From a virus, in the UHGV virus genome UHGV-0123675: a stretch of 42,627 bases of DNA, one strand, 5' to 3'. Positions 23,963 through 42,599 of this stretch are shown in pieces. The translations under genes were made by a program, and so were the position numbers. The notes beneath the pieces were generated by a model. That model had not been told where the DNA came from, did no database searches, and was given only the letters and a program-made list of their open reading frames with translations. How positions within the stretch are numbered: the first letter of the stretch is position 1; every line of letters starts with the position of its first letter.

Positions 23963-23964
23963 CG

Positions 23965-24727: not shown

Positions 24728-24728
24728 T

Positions 24729-25951: not shown

Positions 25952-26561
25952 TATCGCAGGCGACCTGCAGCGCAGACTGGCGAACCTTGTCCGGCGCGGC
26001 GTTATCCACTCCGTCAGGCACGATCGCATCCCAAAATGCCGGGTGGATTTGGGGGATATCATCACGACCTGGCTGCCGTTGTGCCAGGGCTTTTCCGGAA
26101 CTAACCGCGCTGATTCAAATCCTTATGCCGTGGGGGATGCGGTTACGGTCCTGTCCGAAGCCGGAGAGCTCAACAACGGACGGGTGTTTCCCGGCTGGAA
26201 CACGGGAAAGCTGCCAGTGCCGGAAGGAAGTGACAGCGAGCACATTACCCGTTACAGCGACGGGACCGAGATCCGTTATGACAGGAACGCGCATGCCCTG
26301 ACGATTACGCTGGCTGATGGTGGAACTTACAAAATTGTCGGTAAAGGCACGCTGGATGGTCCGGTTGAAATTACCGATACCCTGACAGTTCATGGCAAAA
26401 CCCAGATTAATGCCGACACGTCGGTTGCAGGGAATATCGGGGCGTCAAAGGAGATAACGGATAAATCCGGCAGCATGAGCAAGATACGTGAAGTCTTTAA
26501 CAACCACGATCACCGCGGCGACAGCGGCGGGCTCACCGATAAACCTAATCAGAAAATGTGA
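25944..26561 (+). CDS. Baseplate spike protein (P2 gpV-like)
   Basis: C-terminus HNHDHRGDSGGLTDKPN parallels P2 gpV HTHKHPGDSGGTTGSP; start ATG 25944 overlaps upstream stop. Confidence 0.7.
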   Translation: MSDIAGDLQRRLANLVRRGVIHSVRHDRIPKCRVDLGDIITTWLPLCQGFSGTNRADSNPYAVGDAVTVLSEAGELNNGRVFPGWNTGKLPVPEGSDSEHITRYSDGTEIRYDRNAHALTITLADGGTYKIVGKGTLDGPVEITDTLTVHGKTQINADTSVAGNIGASKEITDKSGSMSKIREVFNNHDHRGDSGGLTDKPNQKM

Positions 26562-26582
26562 CCTGCTGCGGCAGGTTTTTTT
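26562..26582 (+). terminator. Hairpin plus T-run (terminator/attenuator-like) upstream of sheath gene
   Basis: CCTGC-tgcg-GCAGG followed by TTTTTTT then GGAG-A-rich-ATG. Confidence 0.45.
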
Positions 26583-26599
26583 ATGCCTGGAGAAAAAAC

Positions 26600-28069
26600 A
26601 TGTCTCAGTTACATGGCGTTGAAACTATTGAACTCACCTCGGGTACGGTGGCGGTTACCACGATTCAGACCGCCATTATCGGCCTGGTGGGAACTGCACC
26701 TGATGCGTCGGGGGGAACAGCCGCATCGGGATCATCCGGTACACCCATTCTAGATAACGTTATCGACTTCACGGCAACCATTAAGGGGCGGGAAGGCAAT
26801 GTCATCAATGTCGCTGCGCTGGCCGGACAGCCGGCAGCCGAAAATCCTGCTGCGGTTGTGACGTCAGCAAGCTGGGATCCTGAATCGCTGACACTGAACA
26901 TCACGCTGGGTTGTGATGAGCACGGTGTTATCACGGCTAAACCTGGAGAAGTTGCTGAGGCTGTCGGTGGTGTTGATGGCGTAAAAATCAGTGCGAGCGG
27001 GCGCGGTGACGGGATTGTCCAGCCCTTCAGCCTGCAATTAGCGGGGGGTGAAGATGAACCCTTTCCACTCAATACGCCGGTGGCGGTCATCGGCACCACG
27101 CTGTTATCCCGCCTGGGTGAAAAAGGTACGCTTAAACAGGCACTGACTGATATTAACGATCAGCGTAATGCGCTGACGGTGGTGGTGCGTGTGGCGGATG
27201 AAAACGATGTGGCAAAACGACGCGCGGCGGTACTGAAGGGGATTGGCACCCTGTCATCAGCGAAATCTGTTACGACGTACCAGCCGCGTATTGTGATTGC
27301 GCCGGAATTCAGTGAGGACGATGCGGTTGGTAAGGGGCTGGAAACCGTGGCCGGGAAATTGCGCGCCGTTGCCTATGTTGACTGCGCCTCCGGTGCGACG
27401 CTGCAGGAAGTGGTACAGCGTCGCCAGTCCTATGGCGCACGAACTGAACTGTTGCGCCCGCGGGTCCAGGCGAGTGATGCAGATGGCCAGCTGGTTTATC
27501 GCCCTTACTCTGCATTTGCTGCCGGATTACGCGCCCGCATCGACTTTGAAAAAGGCTGGTGGTGGAGCAAGTCGAACCAGAACATCAATAACATCCTCGG
27601 TGTTGAGCAGATCGATGAATTTATCCTCGGGGATGAGAACTGCGATGCAAACCTGCTCAACATGCAGAACGTGTCCACCATTATCCGCCGGGCGGGTTTT
27701 AAACACTGGGGGAACCGCCTGTGTGCAACCAATCCTCAGTGGCGTTTTGAATCTGTACGCCGTACAGCTGATGTTATTGAGGACAGCATTCAGGAAACCA
27801 TGCTGGAGTATGTTGACCGCCCACTGGACCGGGAAAATGCGGATGACATTATCGGTACCATCAATGCCTATATGCGGCAACTGGTCGGTCTTGGCGCCAT
27901 ATTCGGTGGGCGGGCCTGGCTGGATGAAGAACTGAACACCGCGGAAACCATGGCGTCGGGTGTCCTGTACATCAACTATGACTTTGGTCCGAAATCGCCG
28001 ACTGAACTTATCAGCCTGCGCGTCCGGGTGAACAATAACTATGCGCTTGAGGAGATGCTTGCAGCATGA
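26600..28069 (+). CDS. Contractile tail sheath protein (P2 FI-like)
   Basis: ~490-aa protein followed directly by FII-like tube gene; start ATG 26600 after GGAGAAAAAAC. Confidence 0.85.
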   Translation: MSQLHGVETIELTSGTVAVTTIQTAIIGLVGTAPDASGGTAASGSSGTPILDNVIDFTATIKGREGNVINVAALAGQPAAENPAAVVTSASWDPESLTLNITLGCDEHGVITAKPGEVAEAVGGVDGVKISASGRGDGIVQPFSLQLAGGEDEPFPLNTPVAVIGTTLLSRLGEKGTLKQALTDINDQRNALTVVVRVADENDVAKRRAAVLKGIGTLSSAKSVTTYQPRIVIAPEFSEDDAVGKGLETVAGKLRAVAYVDCASGATLQEVVQRRQSYGARTELLRPRVQASDADGQLVYRPYSAFAAGLRARIDFEKGWWWSKSNQNINNILGVEQIDEFILGDENCDANLLNMQNVSTIIRRAGFKHWGNRLCATNPQWRFESVRRTADVIEDSIQETMLEYVDRPLDRENADDIIGTINAYMRQLVGLGAIFGGRAWLDEELNTAETMASGVLYINYDFGPKSPTELISLRVRVNNNYALEEMLAA

Positions 28070-28572
28070 GCGATAAAAACACACTACGCGTCTGGACCTT
28101 CTTCCGGCAGGGGATCCGTATTCAGGGGGCGCATGAATTTACGCCGCCGTCTCTGGCTATTGTTAAAACGGATTTGCGTACCGGCGCACAGGATGCGCCA
28201 ACTCCGGTTGATGACGGCATGGAAGCACTGACCTGTCAGGTTAAATTTTATGGGATAGATACGGATATGCTGGCCAGCTTTGGTTTTGTCAGCGGCAGTC
28301 GTTCACGCTTTACGGCTTATCAGGGCTATCTCGGTAACGGCACTGCGCGCGGTACGGTTGAGGAAATCGAGGGGTTTGTACAGACCGTCACGCCGGATGC
28401 GCGCAGTAAGGACACGCTTTCCGAAAATGCCGTGACGGTTGATATTGCCGTCAGCTACTACCGTCAGTCACTGGACGGGCGCGAACTGTTTGCCATCGAC
28501 ACAGAGCGTTTCGCCCGCCGGGTGAATGGCGTTGATGTGCTTTCTGGCCTGGCTGCCAAAGTGCGTCTCTGA
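28066..28572 (+). CDS. Tail tube protein (P2 FII-like)
   Basis: C-terminus YYRQSLDGRELFAIDTERFARRVNGVDVL parallels P2 FII YFRLTMDGKELVEIDTINMIEKVNGVDRL. Confidence 0.85.
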   Translation: MSDKNTLRVWTFFRQGIRIQGAHEFTPPSLAIVKTDLRTGAQDAPTPVDDGMEALTCQVKFYGIDTDMLASFGFVSGSRSRFTAYQGYLGNGTARGTVEEIEGFVQTVTPDARSKDTLSENAVTVDIAVSYYRQSLDGRELFAIDTERFARRVNGVDVLSGLAAKVRL

Positions 28573-28596
28573 TTTTACTGTTATCCCACCACTGTA

Positions 28597-28619
28597 ACGG
28601 CCTGCGGGCCGTTTTTTTA
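28597..28619 (+). terminator. Hairpin plus T-run after tail tube gene
   Basis: ACGGCC-tgcg-GGCCGT followed by TTTTTTTAT. Confidence 0.5.
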
Positions 28620-28630
28620 TGGAGCATCCT

Positions 28631-28930
28631 ATGAGCTTTCCTGGTGAAACCCGCGTTATAAAACTGTATTCCCCCGTATCACTTGATAGCGGGGTTGTGA
28701 TCGATGAAGTCACCATGCGTGAACCGCTGGTTCGCGATCGCATCACTCATGCCAAAGACCGCGGCAACGAAGAAGAGAAAGAAGCCCGCATGATTGCGCT
28801 GCTGTGCAATCTCAGTGAACAGGATCTCTGGCTGATGACGGCGGCAGATTATTCACAGCTGCTGGATGCCTTTAACGTTTTTATGCTCCCGCCCGCGAAG
28901 CGACCGAAGGCGGGCTCCTCCGGGCAATAA
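28631..28930 (+). CDS. Tail assembly chaperone (P2 gpE-like)
   Basis: ~100-aa ORF between tube and tape measure; start ATG 28631 after GGAG (ORF track starts at 28619). Confidence 0.65.
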   Translation: MSFPGETRVIKLYSPVSLDSGVVIDEVTMREPLVRDRITHAKDRGNEEEKEARMIALLCNLSEQDLWLMTAADYSQLLDAFNVFMLPPAKRPKAGSSGQ

Positions 28931-29058
28931 GATTTCTGGGGCGGCGGCTGCATTTTCCGATGGCGGAATACCTTGATATGCCGTTCAGCACTTTCTCTGA
29001 TTTTTTGACTGACGAACTGGAGACGATAAACCGTGGGCGGAATAAGCCAGAACCTTAA
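28631..29058 (+). other. Predicted -1 programmed frameshift product of the tail chaperone (E+E'-like), slip at the T-run near 28878-28884
   Basis: The -1 frame is open from 28876 to a TAA at 29056-29058 and opens exactly at the GTTTTTA run inside the chaperone gene; extension has no start codon of its own. Confidence 0.45.
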
Positions 29059-30958
29059 GGCCGTGATTACCTTTGGCGGGAACCTGGATAATTCATGGAA
29101 ACGATCTGCAGATGGTCTGCAAAAAAGCCTGAAAGATGTCGGAAAGCAGTCTGAACGACTGACAAAAGACCAGACCAGACTGGCAGCAGAAATCAAACGC
29201 GCCAAACTGGCCGGTGAAAGCCTGGGGGATTTGAAGCGCCGCTATACCGATGTTTCCAGGGAAATCCGCAAAACGGAGGCGGAGCAGCAGAAACTGAATG
29301 TACAGATGCAAAAAGCACAGCGCATTCAGGCATTCAAAGGAGCCGGTAAAGGTCTGTTCCGGCGCGGTCTGGGGATCGCCGGGCAGGTGGGCGGGATGTT
29401 TGGATCCGGGTTGGCTATTGGCGGTGGCGGTGTGGTGGCTTCAGCTCTTGGCACACTGATAGCGCCAGCTGCCACCAATGCTGAAACGGCAACCCGCACT
29501 AATGTCGCAAAAAGTTACGGCGTGGACGTGGCCACGTTTAATGCCTGGGATTCTCTGGCGAAGCAGTACGACATGAATGCGGAAAACATTGGCGATCTCT
29601 TTGAAGAGTATCTGCACAAATCCGGAGAGTATAAACAGAACGGTAAGCAGGGCTCGCTGCAGGATGCGTTTGAAACGCTCGGGTTCAAAGCGGGGGATTT
29701 TGCCGGGCTCAACGATATGGCGCAGTTCGACAAAATTGTTGAACGGGCGCTCAGCCTTCAGGACGAGTCAAAAGCCTCCTTCGCACTGGATTCTCTTTTT
29801 GGCGGGGAAGCGAGCAAACTGCTGATGCTTATCAAGCAGTCTGGCCGGAGCTACCGCGACCTGATGGACGAACAGCGGCGCTACAACCTTGTGACCAAAG
29901 AGGGGGCAGATGGGGCGGTTGCAGGGAATCAGGCTATCAATAATCTCCGCACTGTTTTCTCTTCTGCGGTTGCTGAAATTTCCGGGCAACTGGGAAATGA
30001 GCTTGCGCCTGATATCCGTAATCTGACGAATGATCTTGCCGACTGGTTCAAAGGTGGCGGGATCAAACGCATTGTGACTTTCCTGCGAAACGACCTTTAT
30101 CCCGGCGTTCTGTCGTTCGGGCAGGGGGTGGTTTTTGTCGGCAAAATTATTTACGCGCTGGCTAAAAAACTGTCCTGGTTGCTGCCGGATGAACGAAATG
30201 ATCAGCGCGATGTACTGAAAACACTGGCTGGTAATGGAATGAATATGGCTCGCCTCCGAGCTGAGCAGACAGGCCAGGGAGAATGGTTTACGCAGCAACT
30301 GGCAATTCATCCTGACTTGCCAGAAAAAGTAAAAGAGTCATGGAATGATACCCGCGGATGGTTCGGTCCTGACAGCGACGATGAGGCGTTTAACAAATCG
30401 CTTGATAAATACCTGTCACCGGAAGGCGGCGATTCGCTTTTAAACTGGAATGCGGCGCTACAGCAAAACAAGGACCATGTAGCGCAAACCGTTAAAGAGG
30501 ACCCGGAAAGCAGTGCCGAAGCCAGGGATAATTACGCGCATGAGCCGGTAACGTTTGCCAGTCAGTGGAAAAGAGAGCCATCAGGGCTGACGGACAGCCT
30601 GGGGGAAGGAGAAAGCGCCCGCGCAGGGGATAAGTATCCGAATGATCTCCTTCTTCCCGTCGTGCAGCAGGACAGGAATGTTACGACAACAAACAGATCA
30701 CCTGCTGAGCCGGTCATTTTGAAAGACGAGAGCACGGGTGGTTACTGGGAAAGCCTGCTTCAAAAAATGGATGTACTGGATAAGCAGCCGCCATCACGGC
30801 AGATAACTGATAACCGCAAATTTGAATACCACTTCGAAATTAATGCTGCGCCGGGACAGGATGAGAAAGCCATTGCCGATGAAGTGACCACGGTGACGAA
30901 AAACAATTCTGCTTTTAATGGTGATAACAGCCTTCTGGATGGGGGACTTGTCTGGTGA
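29033..30958 (+). CDS. Tail tape measure protein
   Basis: 641-aa Gly/Ala-rich, coiled-coil-prone protein after chaperone gene; GTG start. Confidence 0.85.
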   Translation: MGGISQNLKAVITFGGNLDNSWKRSADGLQKSLKDVGKQSERLTKDQTRLAAEIKRAKLAGESLGDLKRRYTDVSREIRKTEAEQQKLNVQMQKAQRIQAFKGAGKGLFRRGLGIAGQVGGMFGSGLAIGGGGVVASALGTLIAPAATNAETATRTNVAKSYGVDVATFNAWDSLAKQYDMNAENIGDLFEEYLHKSGEYKQNGKQGSLQDAFETLGFKAGDFAGLNDMAQFDKIVERALSLQDESKASFALDSLFGGEASKLLMLIKQSGRSYRDLMDEQRRYNLVTKEGADGAVAGNQAINNLRTVFSSAVAEISGQLGNELAPDIRNLTNDLADWFKGGGIKRIVTFLRNDLYPGVLSFGQGVVFVGKIIYALAKKLSWLLPDERNDQRDVLKTLAGNGMNMARLRAEQTGQGEWFTQQLAIHPDLPEKVKESWNDTRGWFGPDSDDEAFNKSLDKYLSPEGGDSLLNWNAALQQNKDHVAQTVKEDPESSAEARDNYAHEPVTFASQWKREPSGLTDSLGEGESARAGDKYPNDLLLPVVQQDRNVTTTNRSPAEPVILKDESTGGYWESLLQKMDVLDKQPPSRQITDNRKFEYHFEINAAPGQDEKAIADEVTTVTKNNSAFNGDNSLLDGGLVW

Positions 30959-31425
30959 GTGAAATTATCCCGATATTTGAAGATTCCGGCCAGCGCAGTG
31001 CAGGCGCATTACGGGGTGGGCAGGAAGCCCGCGTCATGATGATGCTGGGGAATTTCGCCTTTTCGATTGATACAGCGGCTTATCATCAGCTCACCCGTGA
31101 GGCCAGCTGGCGCTGGAGTGAACAGGAACGCATCGGCAAACAGGACCTTCTTCAGTACACCGGAAAGCCCGGGCGTACTGTCAGGCTCGAAGGGCAGTCT
31201 CACGCCTTTTTCCGTAAAGGGGTGGAAGGGGTGAATGATTTATTTGATCTTGCCGAACAGGCGAAACCGCAGCAGCTTGTCAGCGGAGAGGGCGATGTAC
31301 TGGGGTGGTGGGTGGTGACCGACTTTTCAGACACGACGAGTAAGTTTTTACCGGGTGGTGGTCACCGAAATAAAAACTGGACGATGACGCTAAAACACTA
31401 TGCCGACGATCTATCAAACCCGTGA
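30955..31425 (+). CDS. Tail protein (P2 gpU-like)
   Basis: Internal MMMLGNFAFS... resembles P2 gpU N-terminus (MMMLG); true start may be ATG 31036. Confidence 0.7.
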   Translation: MSEIIPIFEDSGQRSAGALRGGQEARVMMMLGNFAFSIDTAAYHQLTREASWRWSEQERIGKQDLLQYTGKPGRTVRLEGQSHAFFRKGVEGVNDLFDLAEQAKPQQLVSGEGDVLGWWVVTDFSDTTSKFLPGGGHRNKNWTMTLKHYADDLSNP

Positions 31426-31615
31426 CGGAGATGTACTGGATGCAATTTGTGCCGTGCATTACGGTACTGAAAATCTTTCAGACTCAGTGACTCAGGTTCT
31501 TGAAGCCAATCAGGGGCTGGCGGATAAGGGGGCTATGTATCCTTCCGGCCTGTATATCACACTGCCGGATCTGGTGACGCCTGTAGCGGAATCGCCATTC
31601 AGTTTATGGGATTGA
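31400..31615 (+). CDS. Tail protein X (P2 gpX-like, LysM-like)
   Basis: GDVLDAICAVHYG...VLEANQGLA resembles P2 gpX GDTLDAICVRYYG...VLAANPGLA. Confidence 0.75.
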   Translation: MPTIYQTRDGDVLDAICAVHYGTENLSDSVTQVLEANQGLADKGAMYPSGLYITLPDLVTPVAESPFSLWD

Positions 31616-31616
31616 T

Positions 31617-32735
31617 ATGGCAGATCAGACAGCGATGCCGGAATATGCTCCGGCTTTCAGCATTCAGGCCGAAGGGAAAGATATAACCCGGGTGCTGCAA
31701 CAATGCCTGAGTGAACTGACCCTGACGGATTATGGTGGGGCAACAGCGAAAGCCGATGAACTGAAAATCAGCCTCATCTCTGAAACGCTGGCGCTTCCCA
31801 CTAAAGGTGCCCGGCTTCGGGTTGCTCTGGGATTCAATGACCAACTGATCGATAAAGGCTGGTTTGTTGTCAGTGGTGTCTCGAGCAGCGGCCCGCCGAG
31901 GCGTATTGAGCTTTATGCGACCGCCGCGCCGATGAACGCCCAGAAACAACCCGGAGATGTGACAAGCCAGAAAACCCGGAGCTGGGATAACCTTCGCCTT
32001 GCCGATATTGTCAAAACAGTGGCCACCGATAACGGACTTATTCCCCGCGTGGCCGACGCGCTCAAAGATATTCATATCAATCACATCGATCAGGTGGCGG
32101 AATCCGATGCCAACCTGCTCGCAAGGCTTGCACGTGACTACAACGCAGTGAGCAAACCATCGGGAGGCTACTGGCTTTTTTTACAGCAGGGGGCCACGGC
32201 AACGGCTTCAGGAAAACAGACTGGCGGGATCACCATCACACCGGATGAAGTATCAAACTGGTCCTACAGTGAAGGTGAGCGGGGGAGTTCGACGGGGAAA
32301 GCTGCGGGGAGCGGAGGTAAAGCCAAAGAGAAAATCGGCGTGCGTTATTACGACGAGGAGGACGGCACGACAAAGACCTCCTCTGTTGAACATGATGGCC
32401 CGGCGATGACCAATCCCTATACCCAGTCGGAGAAAAACACCGCCGAGCAACAGGCAAACTCCAGGAAAACACAGGCGAAGCGTAACGAGCAGAAAATGAC
32501 GCTCACGGGGCCATGTCGCCCTAAACATGTTCCGCTGACAGCAGAAGCAGGTGTGTCGACTTCCGGTTTTGGTTCCCGTGAGGATCGGGCCTGGGTGGTT
32601 GAGTCTCTGGTCTTTTCTCTGACGTCAGCAGGATTCAGCTACACCTACAACCTTGTCGTGGATATTCGTAAACCCGCAGCGGCTTCGAAAAAATCAGAAA
32701 AGCAGGACAAAAAAGGCCCGTCCTACTTCGGTTAA
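31617..32735 (+). CDS. Tail protein D (P2 gpD-like late control/baseplate hub protein)
   Basis: 372-aa protein following U and X genes, size and position of gpD. Confidence 0.75.
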   Translation: MADQTAMPEYAPAFSIQAEGKDITRVLQQCLSELTLTDYGGATAKADELKISLISETLALPTKGARLRVALGFNDQLIDKGWFVVSGVSSSGPPRRIELYATAAPMNAQKQPGDVTSQKTRSWDNLRLADIVKTVATDNGLIPRVADALKDIHINHIDQVAESDANLLARLARDYNAVSKPSGGYWLFLQQGATATASGKQTGGITITPDEVSNWSYSEGERGSSTGKAAGSGGKAKEKIGVRYYDEEDGTTKTSSVEHDGPAMTNPYTQSEKNTAEQQANSRKTQAKRNEQKMTLTGPCRPKHVPLTAEAGVSTSGFGSREDRAWVVESLVFSLTSAGFSYTYNLVVDIRKPAAASKKSEKQDKKGPSYFG

Positions 32736-32774
32736 CCCTCCCGCCATCCGGCGACTCAGCAACGGAATTTAATC

Positions 32775-33128
32775 ATGAACGGTGTAAACAACCGGACCGG
32801 AAAACGCCTGTCCGGCGTCGCCCATTTGCGGCAGTCCGTCAGCGACATACTGACCACTCCCATCGGGAGCCGGGTTCTTGTTCGGGACTATGGCAGTGAT
32901 CTGTTTTCGCTGGTGGATAACCCCCGGGATGATTTGACCCGACTACAAATAATCGCTGCGTCTGCGACCGCACTGGCCCGGTGGGAGACGCGGCTGAAGG
33001 TAACACGTGTGCTTGTTTCCTTTCCTGAAGGGGAGTCCGGCTGTGTGCTGGATATCGAGGGGATCAACAAGGAAACCAATTTACCTGTCAGAACGGGAGA
33101 CATAACGATTTATGGCAAGCAGCTATGA
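32775..33128 (+). CDS. Baseplate assembly protein W (gp25/gpW-like)
   Basis: 117-aa protein with DILTTPIGSRVLVRDYGSDLFSLVDNP motif characteristic of gpW/gp25 family. Confidence 0.8.
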   Translation: MNGVNNRTGKRLSGVAHLRQSVSDILTTPIGSRVLVRDYGSDLFSLVDNPRDDLTRLQIIAASATALARWETRLKVTRVLVSFPEGESGCVLDIEGINKETNLPVRTGDITIYGKQL

Positions 33129-34032
33129 CGTGATCAACCTGTCCGAACTGGACGTACCGGATGCCATTGTGGTGCCTGATGCAACTGAAATCTTCACCCG
33201 GTGGCTGGTGCGGCTGAGGGAACTTGATAAGCAGTTTGATGCGCTGGTGGAATCCGATCCGACGTTTAAACAGGGGGAGGTGAATGCCTACCAGCTGACG
33301 CTGGCGTTTCAGCGGGTTAATGATGCCGTGCGGGCGGTATTTCTCGCGAGTGCAAAAGAGGCTGACCTTGACCAGATAGGTGCCGCATTCAACGTTAAAC
33401 GGCAGGTTATTAAGCCCGGAGATCCGCTTGCCATTCCGCCAGTGGAGCCTGAACTGGAAGACGATGCGGCATTTCGTGAACGTATCCAGCTTTCATGGGC
33501 GCAGCTGAATACAGCAGGCGCGCGCAACTCATACCGCTTTCATGCGAAGTCTGCCGATACGGATGTGCTGGATGCCGATGCCTATGGGCCGGAAACCCAT
33601 AACCGGCCCGGCTACGTTGATGTCTATGTCCTGTCACGTACCGGGGATGGGGCGGCGGGGCAGCCCCTGCTTGATAAGGTTAACAGCACACTGAATGCGG
33701 ATGAAATCCGCCCGTTAACGGACTACGTGACGGTTAAAAGTGCCACGATTGCAAACTATGCCGTTACGGCAGAGCTGGAGATCCCGGAAGGACCAGACGC
33801 CAGTACGGTGCTGAATAATGCCATCGATGTTTTACGGTCATACACCACGCTTTCCCATCGGATTAAAACCGTCGTCCCGTTATCCGCCATTTATGCCGCG
33901 CTGCAGCAATCCGGTGTGGTCCGGGTAAGGCTGATTTCTCCGGTAGCAGATCTGGAAGCGGAACCGGGTAAAGCGCCCTGGTGTACCGCCATTAATGTCA
34001 CCCGCAGGGAGGTAAGCAGCAATGACGGCTAA
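33112..34032 (+). CDS. Baseplate assembly protein J (P2 gpJ-like)
   Basis: 306-aa protein; RVNDAVRAV, DVYVLSR, LSAIYAALQ segments parallel P2 gpJ. Confidence 0.85.
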   Translation: MASSYDVINLSELDVPDAIVVPDATEIFTRWLVRLRELDKQFDALVESDPTFKQGEVNAYQLTLAFQRVNDAVRAVFLASAKEADLDQIGAAFNVKRQVIKPGDPLAIPPVEPELEDDAAFRERIQLSWAQLNTAGARNSYRFHAKSADTDVLDADAYGPETHNRPGYVDVYVLSRTGDGAAGQPLLDKVNSTLNADEIRPLTDYVTVKSATIANYAVTAELEIPEGPDASTVLNNAIDVLRSYTTLSHRIKTVVPLSAIYAALQQSGVVRVRLISPVADLEAEPGKAPWCTAINVTRREVSSNDG

Positions 34033-34585
34033 GTTTCGATCTCTGCTACCTCCTGGTGCATTTCATGAAGAGCGGGCGCAGGAGCAGGCCAGCGCTGAGC
34101 AGATCGCCACCCTCGATACCAATATGGTGCGCAAGTCCAAAAATCCTGACACCTGTCCGGCACATCTTCTCCCCTGGCTGGCCTGGGAGCATGCCGTTGA
34201 TTTCTGGGATGACGGCTGGACGGAGGCGCAAAAGCGACAGGTGATAAAGGATGCCGCTTATGTTCATCAGCACAGGGGAACGGCCGGGGCGGTACGCCGT
34301 TCTCTCGGGTCAGTGAACCTGCCCACGATCGTGGTTGAGTGGTGGGAAGACACCCCGCGCGCTGAACCTTACACCTTCCGGATCGAAGTACAGAGCAGTG
34401 AGGGGGTCAGTGACGCTCTCTATCATCAGATCCGCCAGCTTACCGAGCGGGCCAAGAACCTGCGCAGCTATCTGAGCAAAATCGATGTGATGGCGAATGT
34501 GGGTATGGACGGGGCTTTTTATATTTCGGGTGCGACAACAGCGCATATCGATGTGGACATTTTTGCCGGGGAATCTCATGGCTGA
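34022..34585 (+). CDS. Baseplate/tail protein I (P2 gpI-like)
   Basis: NPDTCPAHLLPWLAWEHAVDFWDDGWTEAQKRQVIKDA parallels P2 gpI NPDTCPANLLPWLAWAFSVDRWDEKWPEATKRAVIRDA. Confidence 0.8.
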   Translation: MTAKFRSLLPPGAFHEERAQEQASAEQIATLDTNMVRKSKNPDTCPAHLLPWLAWEHAVDFWDDGWTEAQKRQVIKDAAYVHQHRGTAGAVRRSLGSVNLPTIVVEWWEDTPRAEPYTFRIEVQSSEGVSDALYHQIRQLTERAKNLRSYLSKIDVMANVGMDGAFYISGATTAHIDVDIFAGESHG

Positions 34586-36350
34586 TTACTACTCAATTAT
34601 CACTAACCGGGGTAAAGAACTGGAGGCGGAGGCGCTTGCCAGTGGTCGCCTGATTGTACTGACTCACTTTGTGGTGGGTGACAGTAGTGGCAAGCAGGTC
34701 AAACCTGATCCGTCGCAAATCCGGTTAATCAATGAAACGTACCGGGGAGATATCGCTGAGCTGGTGGTGTCCCCGGAGCAGTCCACACAGTTAATGGCAA
34801 AAATCGTCCTGCCGACCGGGGTTGGTGGATTCACCGTTCGCGAAGTCGGTTTAATGACTGACGCCGGAGAGCTTTACGCGGTGGCAAACTGCCCATCGAT
34901 CGATAAGCCGGTTGGTGGTGTCAGCGTTAATATGCAGTTTCGCCTGGCAGTATCAGATACCTCAAATATCACGCTGAATGTTGCAACCGGCGACGGGTTA
35001 TTTCTGCGTATTGACCAGTACCTGAAAGAGATAAAAGCGCGGGGCGCGGAAGCACAAAAAACATCGCGTGAATCCATTGGTGTCCTCGATAGCACAACAC
35101 AACAAAGAGGGCTGGTTCAACTTAGCAGTTCGGTGAACAGCACCAGTGAAACGCAGGCCGCCACCCCGGCAGCAGTTAAGATCGCAATGGATAATGCGAA
35201 TGCGCGACTGGCTAAAGACCGGAACGGCAGTGATATTCCTAATGTCGCATTATTTCTACAAAACCTTGGCCTGGTAGAAACGATAAATCGAGCAGCCGGT
35301 TCGCTGCAAAAAAATCAGAACGGCGCTGATGTACCGCAACCGGATTCGTTTGTACGTAATATCGGTGCCGGGCGAGCTTTCAGTGGCTCAGTCAGTATTG
35401 GTGGAGGCGGTAACTGGACAACAGCGGACTTTATCGTCTGGCTTGAAAATCAGGGGGCATTTAATCATCCCTATTGGGTATGCAAAGGTTCATGGTCCTA
35501 CGGTGATAACAGGGTTATTACGGATACGGGATGCGGGAATATCAGTCTTGCTGGCTCGGTAGTTGAGGTTATGGGAGTGCGTGATGCGATGACTATTCGT
35601 ATCACCACGCCAACCACCACAGCAGGAAATGGAACGCCTTCCGCTCAGTTTACCTACATCAATCATGGTGATGGTTACTTGCCAGGCTGGCACAGGGATT
35701 TTAATACAGCAAATCCTCCTTATGAGTATTACCCCGTAGGCGCACCCATACCATGGCCTTCGGATATACCGCCTGCTAACCATGCGCTTATGCAGGGCCA
35801 ATCGTTTGATAAATCTGCCTATCCATTACTTGCTGTGGCATATCCTGTGGGGGTTATTCCTGATATGCGTGGTCAGACGATAAAAGGCAACCCAACAGGT
35901 AGAGGGGTATTAACACAAGAACAGGATGGTATTAAGTGGCACGATCACGGCGCAACGATCGCAAGTACCGATCTTGGAAGCAGGGATACAACCGGGTTTG
36001 ATTATGGCACCAAATCGGTATCAGTTTTTGACTACGGTACTAAATCAACAACCGGCGCGGGGGCTCACAATCACCCTATATCCGGGAGAACGCAGTTTGG
36101 TCAGGCAGGGGATGTCGTTGCAATGTCCAATACTGGCTCTGACAGAACAAACTGGGGAGCTGTTGGTGGCGTTGGCGACCATGCTCACGCCGTAGGAATT
36201 GGTGCACATGATCACGTGGTGGGTATTGGAGCGCATGCTCACTCTGTTTACATTGGCGCGCACAGCCATGGTGTGACGGTTTCACCATCTGGTCAGGCTG
36301 AAAACACTGTAAAAAATACGGCATTTAATTATTTAGTGAGGCTTGCATAA
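34578..36350 (+). CDS. Tail fibre protein (P2 gpH-like N-terminus; His-rich GxGAHxH repeats at C-terminal tip)
   Basis: GLVQLSSSVNSTSETQAATPAAVK matches the conserved gpH motif; start ATG 34578 overlaps gpI stop (ORF track starts 34497). Confidence 0.85.
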   Translation: MADYYSIITNRGKELEAEALASGRLIVLTHFVVGDSSGKQVKPDPSQIRLINETYRGDIAELVVSPEQSTQLMAKIVLPTGVGGFTVREVGLMTDAGELYAVANCPSIDKPVGGVSVNMQFRLAVSDTSNITLNVATGDGLFLRIDQYLKEIKARGAEAQKTSRESIGVLDSTTQQRGLVQLSSSVNSTSETQAATPAAVKIAMDNANARLAKDRNGSDIPNVALFLQNLGLVETINRAAGSLQKNQNGADVPQPDSFVRNIGAGRAFSGSVSIGGGGNWTTADFIVWLENQGAFNHPYWVCKGSWSYGDNRVITDTGCGNISLAGSVVEVMGVRDAMTIRITTPTTTAGNGTPSAQFTYINHGDGYLPGWHRDFNTANPPYEYYPVGAPIPWPSDIPPANHALMQGQSFDKSAYPLLAVAYPVGVIPDMRGQTIKGNPTGRGVLTQEQDGIKWHDHGATIASTDLGSRDTTGFDYGTKSVSVFDYGTKSTTGAGAHNHPISGRTQFGQAGDVVAMSNTGSDRTNWGAVGGVGDHAHAVGIGAHDHVVGIGAHAHSVYIGAHSHGVTVSPSGQAENTVKNTAFNYLVRLA

Positions 36351-36934
36351 TGGCTTTTAAAATGACCGATACCAACCGCGTTATTACTATTTACAACCTT
36401 TCATCAGCAACGAATGAGTTTATCGGTAAGGGGGATGGGTTTATTCCGGCTAATACAGGCTTACCTGCGTATAGTACTGATATAGCACCGCCAAAAGTGA
36501 AGGCGGGGTTCGTTGCTGTTTTCGATATTCAGACCAATAAGTGGTCGCAAGTAGAAGACCACCGGGGAGAGACCGTTTATGACATCAGCACAGGTAGACC
36601 CACTGTTATTGAGACGCTGGGGTCCCTGCCTGATAATGTTGTATCAGTGGCTCCCGAAGGAGGATATGTTAAATGGGACGGCACACAATGGGTTCATGAT
36701 GCAGAAGCGGAAAAAGCATTTTTTCAGGGACAGGCTGCGCAGGAAAAAGCAAACCTGTTGATGATTGCAACATCTGCTATTGCTCCTCTCCAGGATGCAG
36801 TTGATCTGGACATTGCGACGGAAGACGAATCGAAAGCACTTCTTGCATGGAAAAAGTATCGTGTAATGCTTAACCGAATTAACCCCGAAGATGCTCAAAA
36901 CATCATCTGGCCTGAATCTCCATTGCCCATATAA
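36350..36934 (+). CDS. Tail fibre assembly protein (Tfa chaperone)
   Basis: 194-aa protein directly after fibre gene with conserved C-terminal IAPLQDAVDLDIATEDE...WKKYRVMLNRI tfa signature. Confidence 0.85.
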   Translation: MAFKMTDTNRVITIYNLSSATNEFIGKGDGFIPANTGLPAYSTDIAPPKVKAGFVAVFDIQTNKWSQVEDHRGETVYDISTGRPTVIETLGSLPDNVVSVAPEGGYVKWDGTQWVHDAEAEKAFFQGQAAQEKANLLMIATSAIAPLQDAVDLDIATEDESKALLAWKKYRVMLNRINPEDAQNIIWPESPLPI

Positions 36935-36998: not shown

Positions 36999-37856
36999 TT
37001 ATTTACCTATAAGAGAGACCTTTAATCTTCTTAATAAAGTAATTACATCTTTCCTTCCGAATAGTTTAAACAGATTAAACCAGCGGTTCTTACCCAGGTA
37101 ATTTAGTTTTATTAATTTAGGGTTGTAATGATAGCACATTATAAAAAAACCCTGATCGTCATCAACTATATTATTTCTGAGTGTTTTTATTTGGCACTGA
37201 CAAACCAGTTTGTAAAACTCTTTCCATTTCTTTTGTGTTGCTACAATTGCCCCACCAATAATATAGGAACGATTGTTAATCATGTGGTCAAAAACCTGAT
37301 GGATAGTTTTGACGGCCAAGCCTTTTTTAACTGTAAAGAAATTTACTTTGTTGCGGTCAAATGGATAGTCCCATCGAGATAACCCTCTGGTTACGTCTGC
37401 ACTGCGACAGTAACCAAAGTCAACCCATGCAACCATATCATCATTCACAAGATTTAACTCTATAGCTCTGTTTACAAAATATGTTTTCAGATTGCAAACC
37501 AGTGCATAGTCTGGGGACCAGTATTCGGGGTTTATCAACTGGCGAGTTTCAAGTTTGCTTATGAACTCGTTATCTTTTTGAATCCGCGCAATTATTTTTT
37601 TGATGTGTTGAAATTTTTTATTAATATCTAAAGCCACTACAACAGTATTTTTCCCATTTCTGATTGCTTCAATTTTTGGTTTAAGTTCACTGGATGTGAA
37701 AATGACCATGTCATTATCCAATTCAGACAGATTTTCAAAGTACTGAATATAGGTATCAGCTGTTCTCTCTAAGTGAGGAGAGAAACCTTTATTACTCGTC
37801 CAGTCTCCTCGTCCTATATCGAAAAATGCTGTAACAATGGTAATAGATGAGTTCAT
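36999..37856 (-). CDS. HtrL/YibB-family-like protein (285 aa; tentative), AT-rich cargo gene
   Basis: N-terminus SITIVTAFFDIGRGDW resembles the conserved start of HtrL/YibB-family proteins; AT-rich, minus strand downstream of tail fibre genes. Confidence 0.5.
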   Translation of the reverse strand: MNSSITIVTAFFDIGRGDWTSNKGFSPHLERTADTYIQYFENLSELDNDMVIFTSSELKPKIEAIRNGKNTVVVALDINKKFQHIKKIIARIQKDNEFISKLETRQLINPEYWSPDYALVCNLKTYFVNRAIELNLVNDDMVAWVDFGYCRSADVTRGLSRWDYPFDRNKVNFFTVKKGLAVKTIHQVFDHMINNRSYIIGGAIVATQKKWKEFYKLVCQCQIKTLRNNIVDDDQGFFIMCYHYNPKLIKLNYLGKNRWFNLFKLFGRKDVITLLRRLKVSLIGK

Positions 37857-38659: not shown

Positions 38660-38902
38660 ATGATGCCACGACGTAGCGATATTGAAATAGCCTGGTATGC
38701 TTCGATACAGCAAGAACCGAATGGCCGGAAGACTGTCACCACACAGCGATTTGTCCAGGAACTGAGCAAGGTTAACTGGAACTGGACGATGAAGCAGGCC
38801 AACGAATGGATCGAGTGGTATGTGACAACATTCCGCGATGTATCAACGCAGGAAGGCGAGAACCGTACTTTTCAGTTGTTCAATCCAAACGGAGGACTGT
38901 AG
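38660..38902 (+). CDS. Hypothetical protein (80 aa) co-operonic with UmuD'-like gene
   Basis: ORF with AGAGGGG RBS; stop 2 nt before the UmuD'-like start. Confidence 0.45.
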   Translation: MMPRRSDIEIAWYASIQQEPNGRKTVTTQRFVQELSKVNWNWTMKQANEWIEWYVTTFRDVSTQEGENRTFQLFNPNGGL

Positions 38903-38904
38903 CC

Positions 38905-39294
38905 ATGGGCTTTCCTTCACCTGCCAGTGATTACGTTGAAAAAAGGATTTCGCTCGATCAGCAGCTTATAAGCCAGCCATCAGCAACTTATTTCATGCGG
39001 GCATCACGTTCACATTTCAGGGAAGGAATACTACAGGGGGCGCTGCTTGTTGTGGATGCGTCACTTACTGCCTGTGATGGCTCATTGCTGATATGTGTAA
39101 TTGACGGGGAATTCAGGATCAAGAGATATCGAAAGCATCCTCAACCCCACCTAATTAATCTGGAGAACGGGAGAAGGGAGGCGCTGCCAGCAGATGATGA
39201 CGGTTACAGTTCTGCACCCGCTATATTCGGGGTGATCACGTACATCATTAATGATGCCAGGAACGCGGAGTTTGATGACTGCCCGGTGATGTGA
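38905..39294 (+). CDS. UmuD'-like protein (S24 peptidase fold, lacks the N-terminal propeptide; HumD-like)
   Basis: GFPSPASDYVEKRISLDQQLISQPSATYF ... DGEF.IK parallels E. coli UmuD residues 25 onward ([29 protein letters not shown]); start ATG 38905 with GGAGGA RBS falls exactly at the UmuD autocleavage site; the longer ORF from 38806 overlaps the upstream gene. Confidence 0.8.
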   Translation: MGFPSPASDYVEKRISLDQQLISQPSATYFMRASRSHFREGILQGALLVVDASLTACDGSLLICVIDGEFRIKRYRKHPQPHLINLENGRREALPADDDGYSSAPAIFGVITYIINDARNAEFDDCPVM

Positions 39295-39384
39295 ATAGCT
39301 GAAACTTTACGGTAAAGCCGATGTTTTGTGTCGGGGTTTTTCCCCGATAATTCCCCATTGCTTCCCCGTTCAGAGAACAGGCAT

Positions 39385-39412
39385 AAAAAACCAGCCGTAA
39401 CAGGCTGGTTCT
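39385..39412. terminator. Bidirectional rho-independent terminator (after UmuD'-like gene; on the minus strand directly 3' of the tRNA fragment)
   Basis: AAAAAA-CCAGCC-gtaaca-GGCTGG-TTCTT. Confidence 0.5.
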
Positions 39413-39423
39413 TAAGGGATTTT

Positions 39424-39470
39424 TGGTCGGCACGAGAGGATTTGAACCTCCGACCCCCGACACCCCATGA
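39424..39470 (-). other. tRNA-Pro-like 3' fragment (anticodon-arm to CCA end only), probable attachment-site relic
   Basis: Minus-strand sequence ...TCATGGGGTGTCGGGGGTCGGAGGTTCAAATCCTCTCGTGCCGACCA has a tRNA-Pro-type T-arm and acceptor 3' strand ending CCA; no complementary 5' acceptor strand or D-arm upstream, so not an intact tRNA. Confidence 0.65.
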
Positions 39471-39560
39471 TGGCAAGCTACCGTCTTAAGAGCTATTCTG
39501 CACCAGAAGCTGACGTTGCTTACATAGTGTTATGCTTGTTTATGGGAGCAAGTCACCGAT

Positions 39561-39938
39561 TTAGGCTTTTATTTTGCGATGAACACCAGCCATGAGGCTA
39601 TGCTTCTCTTCTAAATCTACGTCAGATGTCCATACAGTGTTATTGCGGCTCCTGCGAACAGAGGCAACGATCTTACGCTTAATTTCTTTTGGAGACATGT
39701 TCTTGGCTTGGCCAGCAAGAACATAGTCTCTGGATGCTTTCTCTACTGTTTTCAGTAAATTATCAGTGAGGAGTTGTCCGGCGTTACGACATCTGCGAGT
39801 GTTAAACCGCACAGCGAATCTCAGCACATCCTGATAATCAGAGCGGACAATTTCAGTTTTGAGCATCTGTTGCACACGTTTTTGGGCAGTTGTCGAGTTG
39901 CCCAAGTGTTTAACTGCCGCTAGCTTACTTGGTCTCAT
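39561..39938 (-). CDS. Hypothetical basic protein (125 aa)
   Basis: Minus-strand ORF in AT-rich island; Lys/Arg-rich; no recognised motif. Confidence 0.5.
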   Translation of the reverse strand: MRPSKLAAVKHLGNSTTAQKRVQQMLKTEIVRSDYQDVLRFAVRFNTRRCRNAGQLLTDNLLKTVEKASRDYVLAGQAKNMSPKEIKRKIVASVRRSRNNTVWTSDVDLEEKHSLMAGVHRKIKA

Positions 39939-40004
39939 ATAACCCTCCTAACATTCTTCTCATAAGTATTTTATCATAACTGTTCACAAAATACTCAGTG
40001 CGTT

Positions 40005-40586
40005 CTATCTGATCAGTTTAGTTAACAGCTTAGCCCGGGGATTATTATTCCGCTTTACTCGAGCTTTGTCTGCAGCGTTTAGGAAATAGCCAAACGATTG
40101 ATATCTATTGATAAGTTCCTTATCAGGCCGACTTATATTGACCTGGCTTATACCATATGCATCAGCGAAGCTCTCTGAAATAATCAGGGCAATCGGCATG
40201 ACGAAACCTTTCAGGGGATGGTCATTGGGATTTCCTTCGAGGTAGCGAAGGGTTATGCAGAGCCGATTTTTTGAACGCCTCCCAAGCATCAACCCGCAAA
40301 GAAATTCGCGGCATCGAATACTTACATCAATGCGCTTGGTTTGGTTACTCCTTTCCTGGCTCCAGTTGAAGTCAATAAATTGACGTTTTTCTGGCAGACG
40401 CCAACTACTACTAGCCTCTTCTGAATCTATATAATAAATATGACCCAATTTGATTTCATCAACCGGAAGTTGGCTACTAAAGTTCTCAGTAATGGAAACC
40501 ATAGCATCCGCAATTGCCATGGAATAGATTAACTCATGATTTAGCTCTTCACCGGCAGAAAGGATGCCAGCTTGTACCGACGCCAT
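40005..40586 (-). CDS. Hypothetical protein (193 aa)
   Basis: Minus-strand ORF 66 nt upstream of the 125-aa gene; no recognised motif. Confidence 0.5.
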   Translation of the reverse strand: MASVQAGILSAGEELNHELIYSMAIADAMVSITENFSSQLPVDEIKLGHIYYIDSEEASSSWRLPEKRQFIDFNWSQERSNQTKRIDVSIRCREFLCGLMLGRRSKNRLCITLRYLEGNPNDHPLKGFVMPIALIISESFADAYGISQVNISRPDKELINRYQSFGYFLNAADKARVKRNNNPRAKLLTKLIR

Positions 40587-40823
40587 ATCAACTCCCTTTT
40601 TATTATTGTTACAATAACCTGCAACTTAAAACATTTTATTGATGTATAAAGCAAACACTGATGTCAGTTCCTCGCCCAGTGCTGGCAGTAGTATTTGATT
40701 GTGTGCTGCACGAGAAAACTGTCAGATCATACCTAAACTAATACATATGTATTAACTCTTATTGGATCTGACACTGGTACGGCACAGGGCTAAAACTGAT
40801 CTTACAGGCACATCTATCCAATT

Positions 40824-41918
40824 TCAGTCATTAAGGTACTTAGTATTCCCTTCACAAAATCCACAGCCAACCAGTCCACTCATTTCACTAACTGATGTAG
40901 AGCTTCCACCACAGTAGCCGCAAGTACTGATTGAATCATGAAAAACAAGGCAGTTCGTGCACAGATATCCACCTCCGTACTCACATACCGTCTCATAGCC
41001 GTCACAATCGGAACAACTTGCTGGAAGGCCTGAATAACTAATATCTTCTGGTTTGCCGACCCATTCATCCAGCAAATCGTATCTGGATGATGAGTAATTG
41101 CAGTTGTTGCAATTGAAATTCGTTTCACCGGTAGCGTTCAGATCCTGCCTTACTCCGCAACTAGGGCATGTAACTTCGACATAAGGATCAGATCTGCAGC
41201 CGCAGACTAAGCAATTTGCTTCGTGAAGAGTATTTCCTCTCTCCTCATTGATGGATATATCAACGGCAGCATTTTTACTGCAAGCACGACAGTTTGAGAT
41301 CGTGCATCCCTGTTTTCTGAGATCATCGAGTGTAGGCTGTAAATAACGAAATTTTGCATTAGCATAAAACAACGAACTTTCGAGCATACGATCCTCATCT
41401 GATGCCAACTTTGAGTTTAGAGGTTCTCCAAAAAGATAGAACCACTGATCACGCATAAAACGGTTAAGCGCAAACCAAGCGTCAGCCTGTTCATCAAGGA
41501 TTGTCTTCACCTGAGTGTCGGTAAAGTCGGAATGATAAAAATGAACCACACGGTTGCGGTGGTCTTTAACTTTTTTGAATACAGCGATGGTTTCTTTCGG
41601 TAGGGGATTTTGAAGTACATCACCTAACCGCTGACAGGTTTCATCGTATGTGACCGACTGGAAATCACCGGCAAGGTATTTTGCGCGCTCAATTTTCCTC
41701 CCGGAGCACACCAGACTCCAGTGTTCGTGTACTAGCGGCACTTTCAGCATGATCTCTACCGCGGTCCAGAAACTGACAATCGAAAATTTTGGCTTGGAAG
41801 CCTCTAGTTCTTCGCGTGCCTTATCTAGAAACTCCAGACCGTTGTTGATCAGAGCTTGAACGTCTTTAGATACAAACGATTCGTCATTGTACTGGAAGCT
41901 GTATTTTTTATTTTTCAT
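40824..41918 (-). CDS. Hypothetical protein (364 aa) with HEPN-like RNxxxH motif and Cys-rich (multi-CxxC) C-terminal region
   Basis: N-terminal helical region contains KDHRNRVVHFYH (R-N-x3-H); C-terminal ~150 aa contains at least ten CxxC/CxC pairs suggestive of several zinc ribbons. Confidence 0.55.
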   Translation of the reverse strand: MKNKKYSFQYNDESFVSKDVQALINNGLEFLDKAREELEASKPKFSIVSFWTAVEIMLKVPLVHEHWSLVCSGRKIERAKYLAGDFQSVTYDETCQRLGDVLQNPLPKETIAVFKKVKDHRNRVVHFYHSDFTDTQVKTILDEQADAWFALNRFMRDQWFYLFGEPLNSKLASDEDRMLESSLFYANAKFRYLQPTLDDLRKQGCTISNCRACSKNAAVDISINEERGNTLHEANCLVCGCRSDPYVEVTCPSCGVRQDLNATGETNFNCNNCNYSSSRYDLLDEWVGKPEDISYSGLPASCSDCDGYETVCEYGGGYLCTNCLVFHDSISTCGYCGGSSTSVSEMSGLVGCGFCEGNTKYLND

Positions 41919-42409
41919 GGCTATATAACCTGTTTATTCATCCGGTACCCATTGTAAATGCCCTACTTAAACGGAGCACTAATTTTTAGAAATCTTCCAG
42001 CTGGCTGATTATATCTTGGACTAGCCCCATTTGACTAATACACCTGTGTGCTGCGTCCATCAGTTGAACTCACAGCTCCTAGCGGACATTCGCAACATTA
42101 AATTCTTCACCATTTAGATTGTCTAATAGTGATAACCTTTTGAATAATCAAGAGTGACAATATTAAATTATTGGCGAAAAGATGATGTAACGTATTGATA
42201 AAGCATGATAACACGCATGATTTAAAATCCCTTTATCGTGAAAGGGCTGATAGGTACAGGCACTTGTTTTTGCCCTATATAACGGTTATCAAAATCCAAA
42301 AACACACATTGATAATCAATCGGTTAGGGGAATGCTGCAAACTAGTTGATTTACAATAAAATTATAGAATTATTTTTATTTATCATGTGGTTGTATATGA
42401 AGCATCTAA

Positions 42410-42577
42410 CTACTGCTGCGCCACATGGGTTGGGTCGAAGCGGCTGACCTGATCGTTAAAGGTATGGAAGGCGCGATCAACGCCAAGACCGTAACCTATG
42501 ACTTCGAACGTCTGATGGATGGCGCTAAACTGCTGAAATGTTCAGAGTTTGGTGACGCGATCATCGAAAACATGTAA
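42410..42577 (+). pseudogene. icd: 3' fragment of isocitrate dehydrogenase gene (icd), attachment-site duplicate
   Basis: Translation [54 protein letters not shown]-stop matches the Icd C-terminus; an in-frame TAA lies immediately upstream and the preceding DNA is unrelated AT-rich sequence. Confidence 0.8.
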
Positions 42578-42599
42578 TCCAGATTCTGGGTTGTGTGAG

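Follow-up and report, generated by a model that had tools for sequence, protein, structure and literature searches.

A HEC-08 family gene and a separate two-gene cassette with a predicted GNAT-fold enzyme in the cargo slot of an icd-integrating prophage

We analysed three adjacent minus-strand genes near the right end of UHGV virus genome UHGV-0123675, whose full 42,627 nucleotides are called the window here. They encode proteins of 364, 193 and 125 amino acids (aa), and an original prediction, made from the sequence alone, had read them as a possible abortive-infection or RNA-targeting module of no named system, perhaps one single-gene unit plus one two-gene unit, in an AT-rich island between two att relics. 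We find that the largest gene almost certainly belongs to a known single-gene defence family, HEC-08, and that the two smaller genes, for an enzyme with a predicted GNAT fold and a basic partner, very probably form an independent cassette. The genes, and the fragments that bound them, are as follows.

39424-39470, minus strand: 3' fragment of tRNA-Pro, 47 nt, from the anticodon loop to CCA
39561-39938, minus strand: 125-aa gene from the open reading frame (ORF) list, basic helical partner
40005-40586, minus strand: 193-aa gene from the ORF list, predicted GNAT-fold, acyl-CoA N-acyltransferase-like protein of an undescribed family
40824-41918, minus strand: 364-aa gene from the ORF list, almost certainly HEC-08
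42410-42577, plus strand: 3' fragment of icd encoding the Icd C-terminus, attR duplication

The three genes and both fragments lie just where they had been placed. The 364-aa and 193-aa genes are separated by 237 bp, the 193-aa and 125-aa genes by 66 bp. The supposed AT-rich island is indeed lower in GC than the window, though only mildly so (42.9% in 39561-41918 versus 49.0%).

Does the 364-aa protein belong to no named system, as had been thought? It matched the PADLOC model HEC-08 (PDLC04162) over residues 6-363, against profile positions 6-357 of 358 (E = 4.1e-163), and PADLOC's DUF3644 model over residues 17-163 (E = 4.4e-69). It also matched phrog_37794 (E = 7e-210) and is 100% identical to a protein of Citrobacter braakii. 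HEC-08, for Hma-embedded candidate 08, is a single-gene anti-phage defence from a study in which seven of nine candidate systems (not HEC-01 or HEC-09) lowered plaque formation by two or more phages by orders of magnitude. The tested HEC-08 protected E. coli against several phages, an activity lost when the histidine (H128) of its Rx4-6H motif was mutated, and the ECOR52 homologue was likened to SO_3166, PDB 5YEP (Payne, Hughes, Fineran & Jackson, bioRxiv 10.1101/2024.01.29.577857). Aligned to the tested ECOR52 protein, taken from Table S2 of Payne et al., the window protein showed 52% identity over 354 aa (E = 2e-129), with the motif and the cysteines in register. A named system with an experimentally validated homologue, including a mutant in the HEPN histidine, is thus at hand. 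Two features stand out in the protein.

Residues 120-129 (41532-41561, minus strand): HEPN Rx4-6H motif HRNRVVHFYH, with putative catalytic R121 and H126
Residues 210-355 (40854-41291, minus strand): zinc-ribbon region with eight CxxC pairs, enough for four Cys4 sites

The R-N-x3-H signature of a HEPN-type N-terminus and the Cys-rich C-terminus, both noticed by eye in the original prediction, were borne out. The stretch KDHRNRVVHFYH (residues 118-129) contains R121-x4-H126, and across 37 family members H120, R121, N122, R123, V125, H126, F127 and H129 are invariant. So are the eight CxxC pairs (C210/213, 236/239, 251/254, 270/273, 302/305, 320/323, 333/336 and 352/355), which account for most of the 21 cysteines; matches of this region to zinc ribbons in Pfam and among PDB sequences were weak. 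By its sequence the N-terminus is a DUF3644-type HEPN domain and the C-terminus a set of predicted zinc ribbons, and we regard the protein as a full-length HEC-08 member with little room for doubt. The HEPN domain would cleave RNA after infection, and the four ribbons would serve as a sensing or nucleic-acid-binding part. Pointing away from a simple transfer of HEC-08 activity to the window protein are its limited identity to the one tested homologue and the failure of Pfam's own DUF3644 model to match it.

The family is large, with 363 clusters, and widespread in Enterobacterales. Plasmids carry it too (188 records, of which 111 are conjugative), and on these its gene often follows one for a 255-aa tyrosine recombinase and has RES, HEPN-Toprim or restriction genes as neighbours; a tblastn search of sequenced phages with HEC-08 returned no match. 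The window protein resembles HEC-08 in its full-length family match, N-terminal DUF3644-type HEPN domain with Rx4H, four C-terminal zinc ribbons, length (about 365 aa) and single-gene form; it differs in its moderate identity to the ECOR52 protein and in lying at a prophage attR end, not inside an Hma or restriction-modification (R-M) locus. Two other groups are comparable. The EC042_2821-type HEPN family overlaps DUF3644, is fused to zinc ribbons and sits in R-M operons (Anantharaman et al. 2013, Biol Direct 8:15, PMC3710099). It shares the HEPN and zinc-ribbon make-up, compared by description and not by sequence, but includes wHTH and restriction-endonuclease fusions that the 364-aa protein lacks (PMC3710099). 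Ishtar (ist1/ist2) of Acinetobacter comprises stand-alone DUF4145/DUF3644 HEPN proteins that clear plasmid RP4 (bioRxiv 10.64898/2026.07.06.735840). Like the 364-aa protein, it is a stand-alone immune protein with an N-terminal HEPN domain, and HEC-08 homologues are common on conjugative plasmids; unlike it, and by description only, its C-terminal domain consists of beta-sheets and three helices, zinc ribbons being unmentioned (bioRxiv 10.64898/2026.07.06.735840).

NCBI and UniRef label most HEC-08 family members 'hsdR', though they are 360-aa HEPN/zinc-ribbon proteins; other labels are 'TFIIB-type zinc ribbon-containing protein' and 'Zn ribbon nucleic-acid-binding protein'. The 'hsdR' label looks like a systematic misannotation of proteins that are not type I restriction subunits, and it probably arose because of their frequent position in R-M operons, as for the EC042_2821-type family. 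The HEC-08 part of this work adds little beyond flagging that misnaming and extending a validated defence gene to the attR slot of a Citrobacter prophage.

We then considered whether the three genes belong together. The intergenic features that bear on this are listed here.

40587-40749, minus strand: upstream region of the two-gene cassette, with a Shine-Dalgarno sequence AAGGGAG, a conserved leader and promoter-like hexamers
40720-40773, no strand assigned: imperfect palindrome between the modules, with 27-nt arms and perfect 9-bp ends TGTCAGATC/GATCTGACA
41919-42409, no strand assigned: intergenic region upstream of HEC-08, with a promoter-like site and conserved prophage-end (attR arm) DNA; its function is a reading of the sequence

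An Enterobacter genome shares only 39503-40749 of the window (91.5% identity), that is, the two small genes and about 160 bp upstream. A prophage in IMG/VR shares 39332-42433 (98.9%); its upstream region differs and carries full umuDC and an SRAP gene. The leader block and Shine-Dalgarno sequence of the cassette are kept in Citrobacter, Enterobacter and Klebsiella, and promoter-like sites lie above it at 40755-40726 and 40725-40698. HEC-08 has its own promoter-like site at 42037-42008 on the minus strand (TAGTCA-18-TATAAT, 10/12 matches). The centre of the palindrome (40746/40747) coincides with the homology breakpoint at 40749, and the palindrome is a candidate operator, terminator or recombination scar. 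Because of the homology breakpoints and the separate distributions described below, we are confident that module 1 (HEC-08, 40824-41918) and module 2 (the GNAT pair, 39503-40749) are independent. This agrees with the original division into one single-gene and one two-gene unit. HEC-08 being known, the 1.25-kb two-gene cassette is the part that forms a reasonable candidate for a new module.

The proteins of the cassette had been described as showing nothing recognisable. PADLOC, which matched the 364-aa protein, indeed matched neither of them; predicted structure was informative for the 193-aa protein and uninformative for the 125-aa one. An AlphaFold2 model of the 193-aa protein, made from a 19-sequence alignment (pLDDT 83.8, pTM 0.82), has the GNAT alpha/beta order b1-a1-a2-b2-b3-b4-a3-b5-a4-b6, and its closest structural neighbours include RimI, NatD, GCN5 and the C-terminal-lysine acetyltransferase PA4794. 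Sequence models did not place it in the superfamily: Pfam (including the Acetyltransf_1 models), NCBIfam and PADLOC returned no match, and PHROGs gave a single weak, unusable match to phrog_4350. Matches to GNATs among PDB sequences were weak (E = 1-2), yet they fell in the correct GNAT register over motifs A and B, aligning LEGxP..HPLKG with the V-x-P-x-x-RGxGxG pyrophosphate loop and Y162..G166-F/Y with YxxxGF. The tyrosine of this motif, in helix a4, is the usual general acid of GNAT enzymes; Y162 occupies its place.

A profile search of 1.84 billion representative proteins found 462 relatives at E <= 1e-3, mostly of 170-190 aa, and in a sample of 40 Pfam matched none (0/40). The family signature is W..W..LCGL..LEGxP..HPLKG..Y..G[FY]. 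Among 135 distant representatives, conservation reached 97% at Y162, 93% at G166 and 95% at F/Y167; 98% at W62, 97% at W75, 90-98% over L96-C97-G98-L99, 80% at E117 and 96% at P154. In the HPLKG variant at the CoA-loop position, L125 stands at 91% and G127 at 83%. Against RimI, NatD/Naa40, Naa50, GCN5 and PA4794 the protein has only 7-15% sequence identity, and it differs from RimI, NatD, Naa50, GCN5 and PA4794 in an extra long N-terminal helix, the invariant W62, W75 and LCGL, and the atypical pyrophosphate loop. On the predicted model, the 193-aa protein is a divergent GNAT-fold acyltransferase. Since canonical residues such as Y162 are conserved, it probably keeps catalytic capacity despite its atypical CoA loop.

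The partner encoded by the 125-aa gene is strongly basic (pI 10.8). Its predicted structure has a four-helix core at moderate confidence (pLDDT about 85) and disordered termini. Scans with Pfam, NCBIfam, PHROGs and PADLOC gave nothing usable for it, and neither fold comparison nor a PDB sequence-profile search gave an informative match. Its gene nevertheless always lies downstream of the GNAT-like gene, at a distance of 53-70 bp in the close relatives studied; the two were adjacent in each Enterobacterales locus that we looked at, and the partner is a conserved component, not the featureless ORF it had seemed. One short feature lies in its tail.

Residues 113-118 (39585-39602, minus strand): C-terminal motif HSLMAG, with S114, M116 and G118 invariant in close relatives

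To see how far the pairing extends, we surveyed 46 loci with a family member, including 33 metagenome loci obtained with a degenerate DNA pattern. Distant enzymes are likewise trailed by a small basic ORF (58-157 aa, pI 9.5-11.6). These partners are unrelated in sequence save for a short motif 5-15 residues before the C-terminus: SLMAGV in the window, and GPLAGS, GVMAGS, TIMAGP, PVLAGA and PVMAGK elsewhere. A strict pattern, [LIVMP][LIVMA][AS]G in the last 22 residues, occurred in 8 of 21 partner lineages versus 36 of 1823 ORFs taken from those loci as controls (p = 9e-9), and a looser one in 13 of 21 versus 147 of 1823 (p = 1e-9); the motif was defined post hoc, once examples had been seen, and these p-values are indicative only. 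Some lineages carry a variant partner, with a C-terminal HTH_37 domain (an antitoxin-like architecture) in one and a TPR_12 repeat protein in another.

Where else does the cassette occur? A locus search with an alignment of close relatives gave only three genome loci and four viral loci, and altogether the pair was found without HEC-08 in at least seven other contexts, with the same gene order and a gap of 53-70 bp.

E. coli P2-like prophage ends: beside ogr
Klebsiella prophage ends: after umuDC
Yersinia islands: beside CBASS, MazEF, RES and integrase genes
P2-like integrase: beside the gene
E. coli, six genomes: directly after ssrA, both genes annotated 'hypothetical protein'
Enterobacter: immediately downstream of the ABC-3C/PDC-M68B candidate defence system
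Proteus: a bare insertion between flagellar genes

Neighbours of distant members include a retron RT-Toprim gene, RES, HigB, a Panacea-domain antitoxin, a DNA methylase, integrases and plasmid TrfA; viral contigs yielded no distant relatives. Across genera, purifying selection acts on both small genes (dN/dS 0.08-0.32), with the 125-aa partner diverging faster than the 193-aa enzyme. The cassette is mobile among prophage ends, att-site islands and defence islands. As for the co-occurrence of homologues, the members of the GNAT pair are linked to each other and found in mobile and defence contexts, but HEC-08 is not tied to them.

Two of these loci hold further genes of note. In the Klebsiella prophage OW967882.1, two tandem genes for 494-aa RVT_1 reverse transcriptases lie just upstream of umuD (1691-5085 of the locus). 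In the ssrA island of E. coli STEC1590 the pair adjoins a gene for a 377-aa hypothetical protein, WP_063119745 (10813-11946 of the locus), which matched Peptidase_C92, a permuted papain-like amidase, weakly and under the Pfam cutoff (E = 1e-4).

What might the cassette do? Small GNAT-fold enzymes are known as toxins of the type II GNAT/RHH toxin-antitoxin (TA) systems TacAT, AtaRT, KacAT and ItaRT, where toxicity comes from acetylation of aminoacyl-tRNA, and in TacA, AtaR and KacA a C-terminal segment of the antitoxin blocks the active site of the toxin. The pair described here resembles them in that a small GNAT-fold enzyme always comes with a small cognate protein, both being carried by mobile elements. 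By analogy, its partner's tail, which is conserved, predicted to be disordered and enriched in a motif across lineages, might likewise enter the active site. Unlike in those systems, the enzyme gene comes first, the partner is helical and lacks RHH/DUF1778, and the enzyme has no Pfam acetyltransferase match. With no upstream RHH (DUF1778) antitoxin, the pair is not a member of the GNAT/RHH TA class. Literature searches for its accessions and for GNAT-based defence systems returned no description of the pair.

We put at about 50% the explanation as a whole, namely HEC-08 and an independent GNAT pair acting as a TA-like module, side by side in an attR cargo slot. Taken on its own, the idea of module 2 as a TA-like or defence unit whose effector is the enzyme is a tentative proposal that falls somewhat short of even odds. 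The enzyme would acylate a protein or a component of translation, the partner would restrain it through its C-terminal peptide in the substrate or acyl-CoA groove, and infection or loss of the element would free the enzyme. A TA-like or abortive-infection role is suggested because a small enzyme is coupled to a fast-evolving cognate protein with a conserved, predicted-disordered tail, and because of the HTH and TPR partner variants, the ability of so small a unit to insert among core genes, and its location in cargo slots and defence islands. At similar odds, the cassette may be, within Enterobacterales, the founding example of an extensive undescribed family (about 460 clusters) of acetyltransferase-based two-gene conflict modules. 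In such modules a hypervariable basic partner would control the enzyme, or be acted on by it, and be recognised through its C-terminal peptide; HTH or TPR sensor proteins would replace it in some lineages. They could represent a new kind of TA or abortive-infection defence, possibly type VII-like with the enzyme modifying the partner.

Several observations count against a TA-like or defence role. The CoA pyrophosphate loop is atypical (HPLKG, not Q/RxxGxG/A), which leaves cofactor binding in some doubt; in gene order and kind of partner the pair departs from all known GNAT TA pairs. The tail motif, besides its post hoc definition, is lacking or altered in 8-13 of the 21 lineages. Association with defence islands is a tally of about a dozen contexts and no statistical measure of enrichment, the GNAT family is rare in E. 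coli (9 of 5426 genomes by DNA search), and a tblastn search of 50,697 sequenced phage records with the GNAT protein gave no match.

How do other explanations compare? The main rival is an enzyme-substrate relationship: the pair would be a regulatory unit without an immune role, in which acetylation of the basic, probably nucleic-acid-binding partner (for example on a lysine of its C-terminal tail) tunes prophage or host expression, or else a type VII-like pair in which the enzyme neutralises a harmful basic partner by modification. Resemblance to protein acetyltransferases fits this idea and the TA-like model alike. The nearest structures are protein or peptide acetyltransferases (among them RimI, NatD, GCN5 and PA4794), the partners are uniformly basic (pI 9.5-11.6), and lysines often follow the conserved tail motif. 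Nevertheless, distant partners share no conserved lysine position, those of the HTH and TPR kinds resemble regulators or sensors more than substrates, and the neighbourhoods are rich in mobile elements and defence genes; we think this relationship unlikely, though worth keeping in view. Improbable, in our judgement, is a counter-defence or superinfection tool that inactivates a host or rival-phage protein, like the anti-CRISPR AcrVA5. Moron positions at the ends of at least four prophage types would suit it, but the bare cassette between core genes and in non-phage islands would not, nor would its absence from the sequenced phage records, and a dedicated, strictly linked partner is unexpected for a simple anti-defence enzyme.

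Might the three genes make up a single defence system in which the GNAT pair is accessory or regulatory to the HEPN protein? They are adjacent and co-oriented, and they stay together at 98.9% identity in the IMG/VR prophage and in two copies in C. braakii. Yet HEC-08 acts as a single gene, the pair lives without it in the contexts listed above and HEC-08 without the pair on plasmids, and the breakpoint at 40749 splits two modules that each have their own upstream region. We found no sign of joint action. On distribution and homology breakpoints we reject a single three-gene system, which we consider very improbable. The small ORFs might also be decaying remnants, and decay does occur: Proteus sp. 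FME41 has a frameshifted copy and three E. coli genomes have truncated remnants. The dN/dS values of 0.08-0.32 across genera, the confident fold prediction, the conserved Shine-Dalgarno sequence and the 462 representative clusters speak otherwise, and the selection and fold data effectively refute this explanation, to which we give next to no weight. The main value of the work lies in the family of the 193-aa protein: its predicted fold is confident, yet Pfam, NCBIfam and PADLOC all miss the family, and its members carry only the label 'hypothetical protein'. If the pair is a TA or defence module, bacterial immunity would gain a class of acyltransferase effectors governed by a new sort of regulator, and defence-finding tools a new model.

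The setting of both modules was examined as well. Positions 1610-2806 encode a lambda-type integrase, positions 3959-4585 a CI-like repressor; tail-fibre genes occupy about 34.5-36.9 kb and are followed by an HtrL/YibB gene, DinI and a truncated UmuD-like peptidase. Between the repressor and the tail-fibre genes are ORFs sized like lysis and structural genes, and C. braakii loci that align to 13.8-17.5 kb of the window contain holin, endolysin and DUF2514 genes. E. coli e14-like prophages end in a pseudogene that RefSeq annotates as a partial 'isocitrate/isopropylmalate family dehydrogenase', with which the icd fragment aligns, and the match of 42166-42578 to E. coli prophage ends stands at 90.6%. 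The right end of the window (42627) is joined in C. braakii CP101082 to its left end (1) with 53 bp between, an arrangement of two deleted derivatives of the window prophage in tandem. Because of this tandem junction, we take the icd fragment to be the attR duplication of the same prophage, with intact icd just left of the window; the junction rules out a relic of a second element. Of the two presumed att relics, then, both fragments are real, but the icd fragment is the prophage's own attR.

Among the E. coli genomes compared, none covers the region; for this reason, and because the identical 364-aa protein comes from C. braakii, we reject E. coli as the source. In E. coli the slot between the tRNA-fragment region and the icd pseudogene holds an HNH endonuclease in place of HEC-08 and the GNAT pair. 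Different cargo in the same place marks a variable cargo slot. The icd 3' end is duplicated at attR, a tyrosine integrase lies at the opposite end, and the cargo varies. The window is essentially one icd-integrating, myovirus-like prophage of about 42 kb, most likely of Citrobacter origin, with our region as its attR-proximal cargo slot. The att-proximal position proposed for defence cargo therefore holds: HEC-08 lies in the attR slot of an icd-integrating prophage. The e14 prophage at icd, which carries lit near attL and mcrA next to the icd pseudogene, has the same integration site and layout, but the window prophage differs in its cargo and backbone, being a complete 42-kb myovirus-like prophage.

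The tRNA-Pro fragment is identical (47/47) to the annotated tRNA-Pro gene in 5426 of 5426 complete E. coli genomes. A tRNA search of the region with ARAGORN and Rfam did not report it, because it comprises only the 3' part (47 nt). Together with its flank (39330-39470) it has 82-85% identity to sequences near the ends of other lambdoid phages, namely Gifsy-2 (44227-44334 of 45840) and Escherichia phages Phi06_2987, Eeyore and Flotzy. Such a distribution would fit either a phage-end element that has been conserved or the relic of an old attP. Just downstream of it and of the cassette lies one more feature, which was read from the sequence and which a consensus scan did not report.

39384-39410, minus strand: terminator-like hairpin AACCAGCC-TGTTAC-GGCTGGTT followed by a T-run

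Some further observations concern the prophage at large. In C. braakii CP101082.1 (2.18-2.23 Mb) the two copies of the three-gene block are 25.6 kb apart, and the derivatives lack window 9251-13805, 17479-24805 and most of 26464-36426. The UmuD-like S24 peptidase ORF of the window (38806-39294, plus strand) is not followed by umuC or an SRAP gene. The related IMG/VR prophage has a complete umuD-umuC-SRAP set between DinI and the tRNA fragment (3287-5772 of its locus), which implies a deletion in the window ending at the tRNA-Pro fragment. A 245-aa phage DNA methyltransferase (13584-14321, plus strand; PADLOC MTase_II, E = 7e-91), beside which no restriction gene was noticed, is a probable orphan methylase with an anti-restriction role. 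Two adjacent plus-strand ORFs of 272 and 244 aa (50-868 and 870-1604), 99.8% conserved in C. braakii, separate the attL/icd side from the integrase, and Pfam and PADLOC scans gave no match for them; this is the slot where e14 carries lit, and they may be another cargo or defence candidate. Just past the tail-fibre assembly gene, in the most AT-rich part of the prophage end (32-38% GC), the HtrL/YibB-family gene (36999-37856, minus strand; Pfam E = 9e-86) is probably a lipopolysaccharide-related moron.

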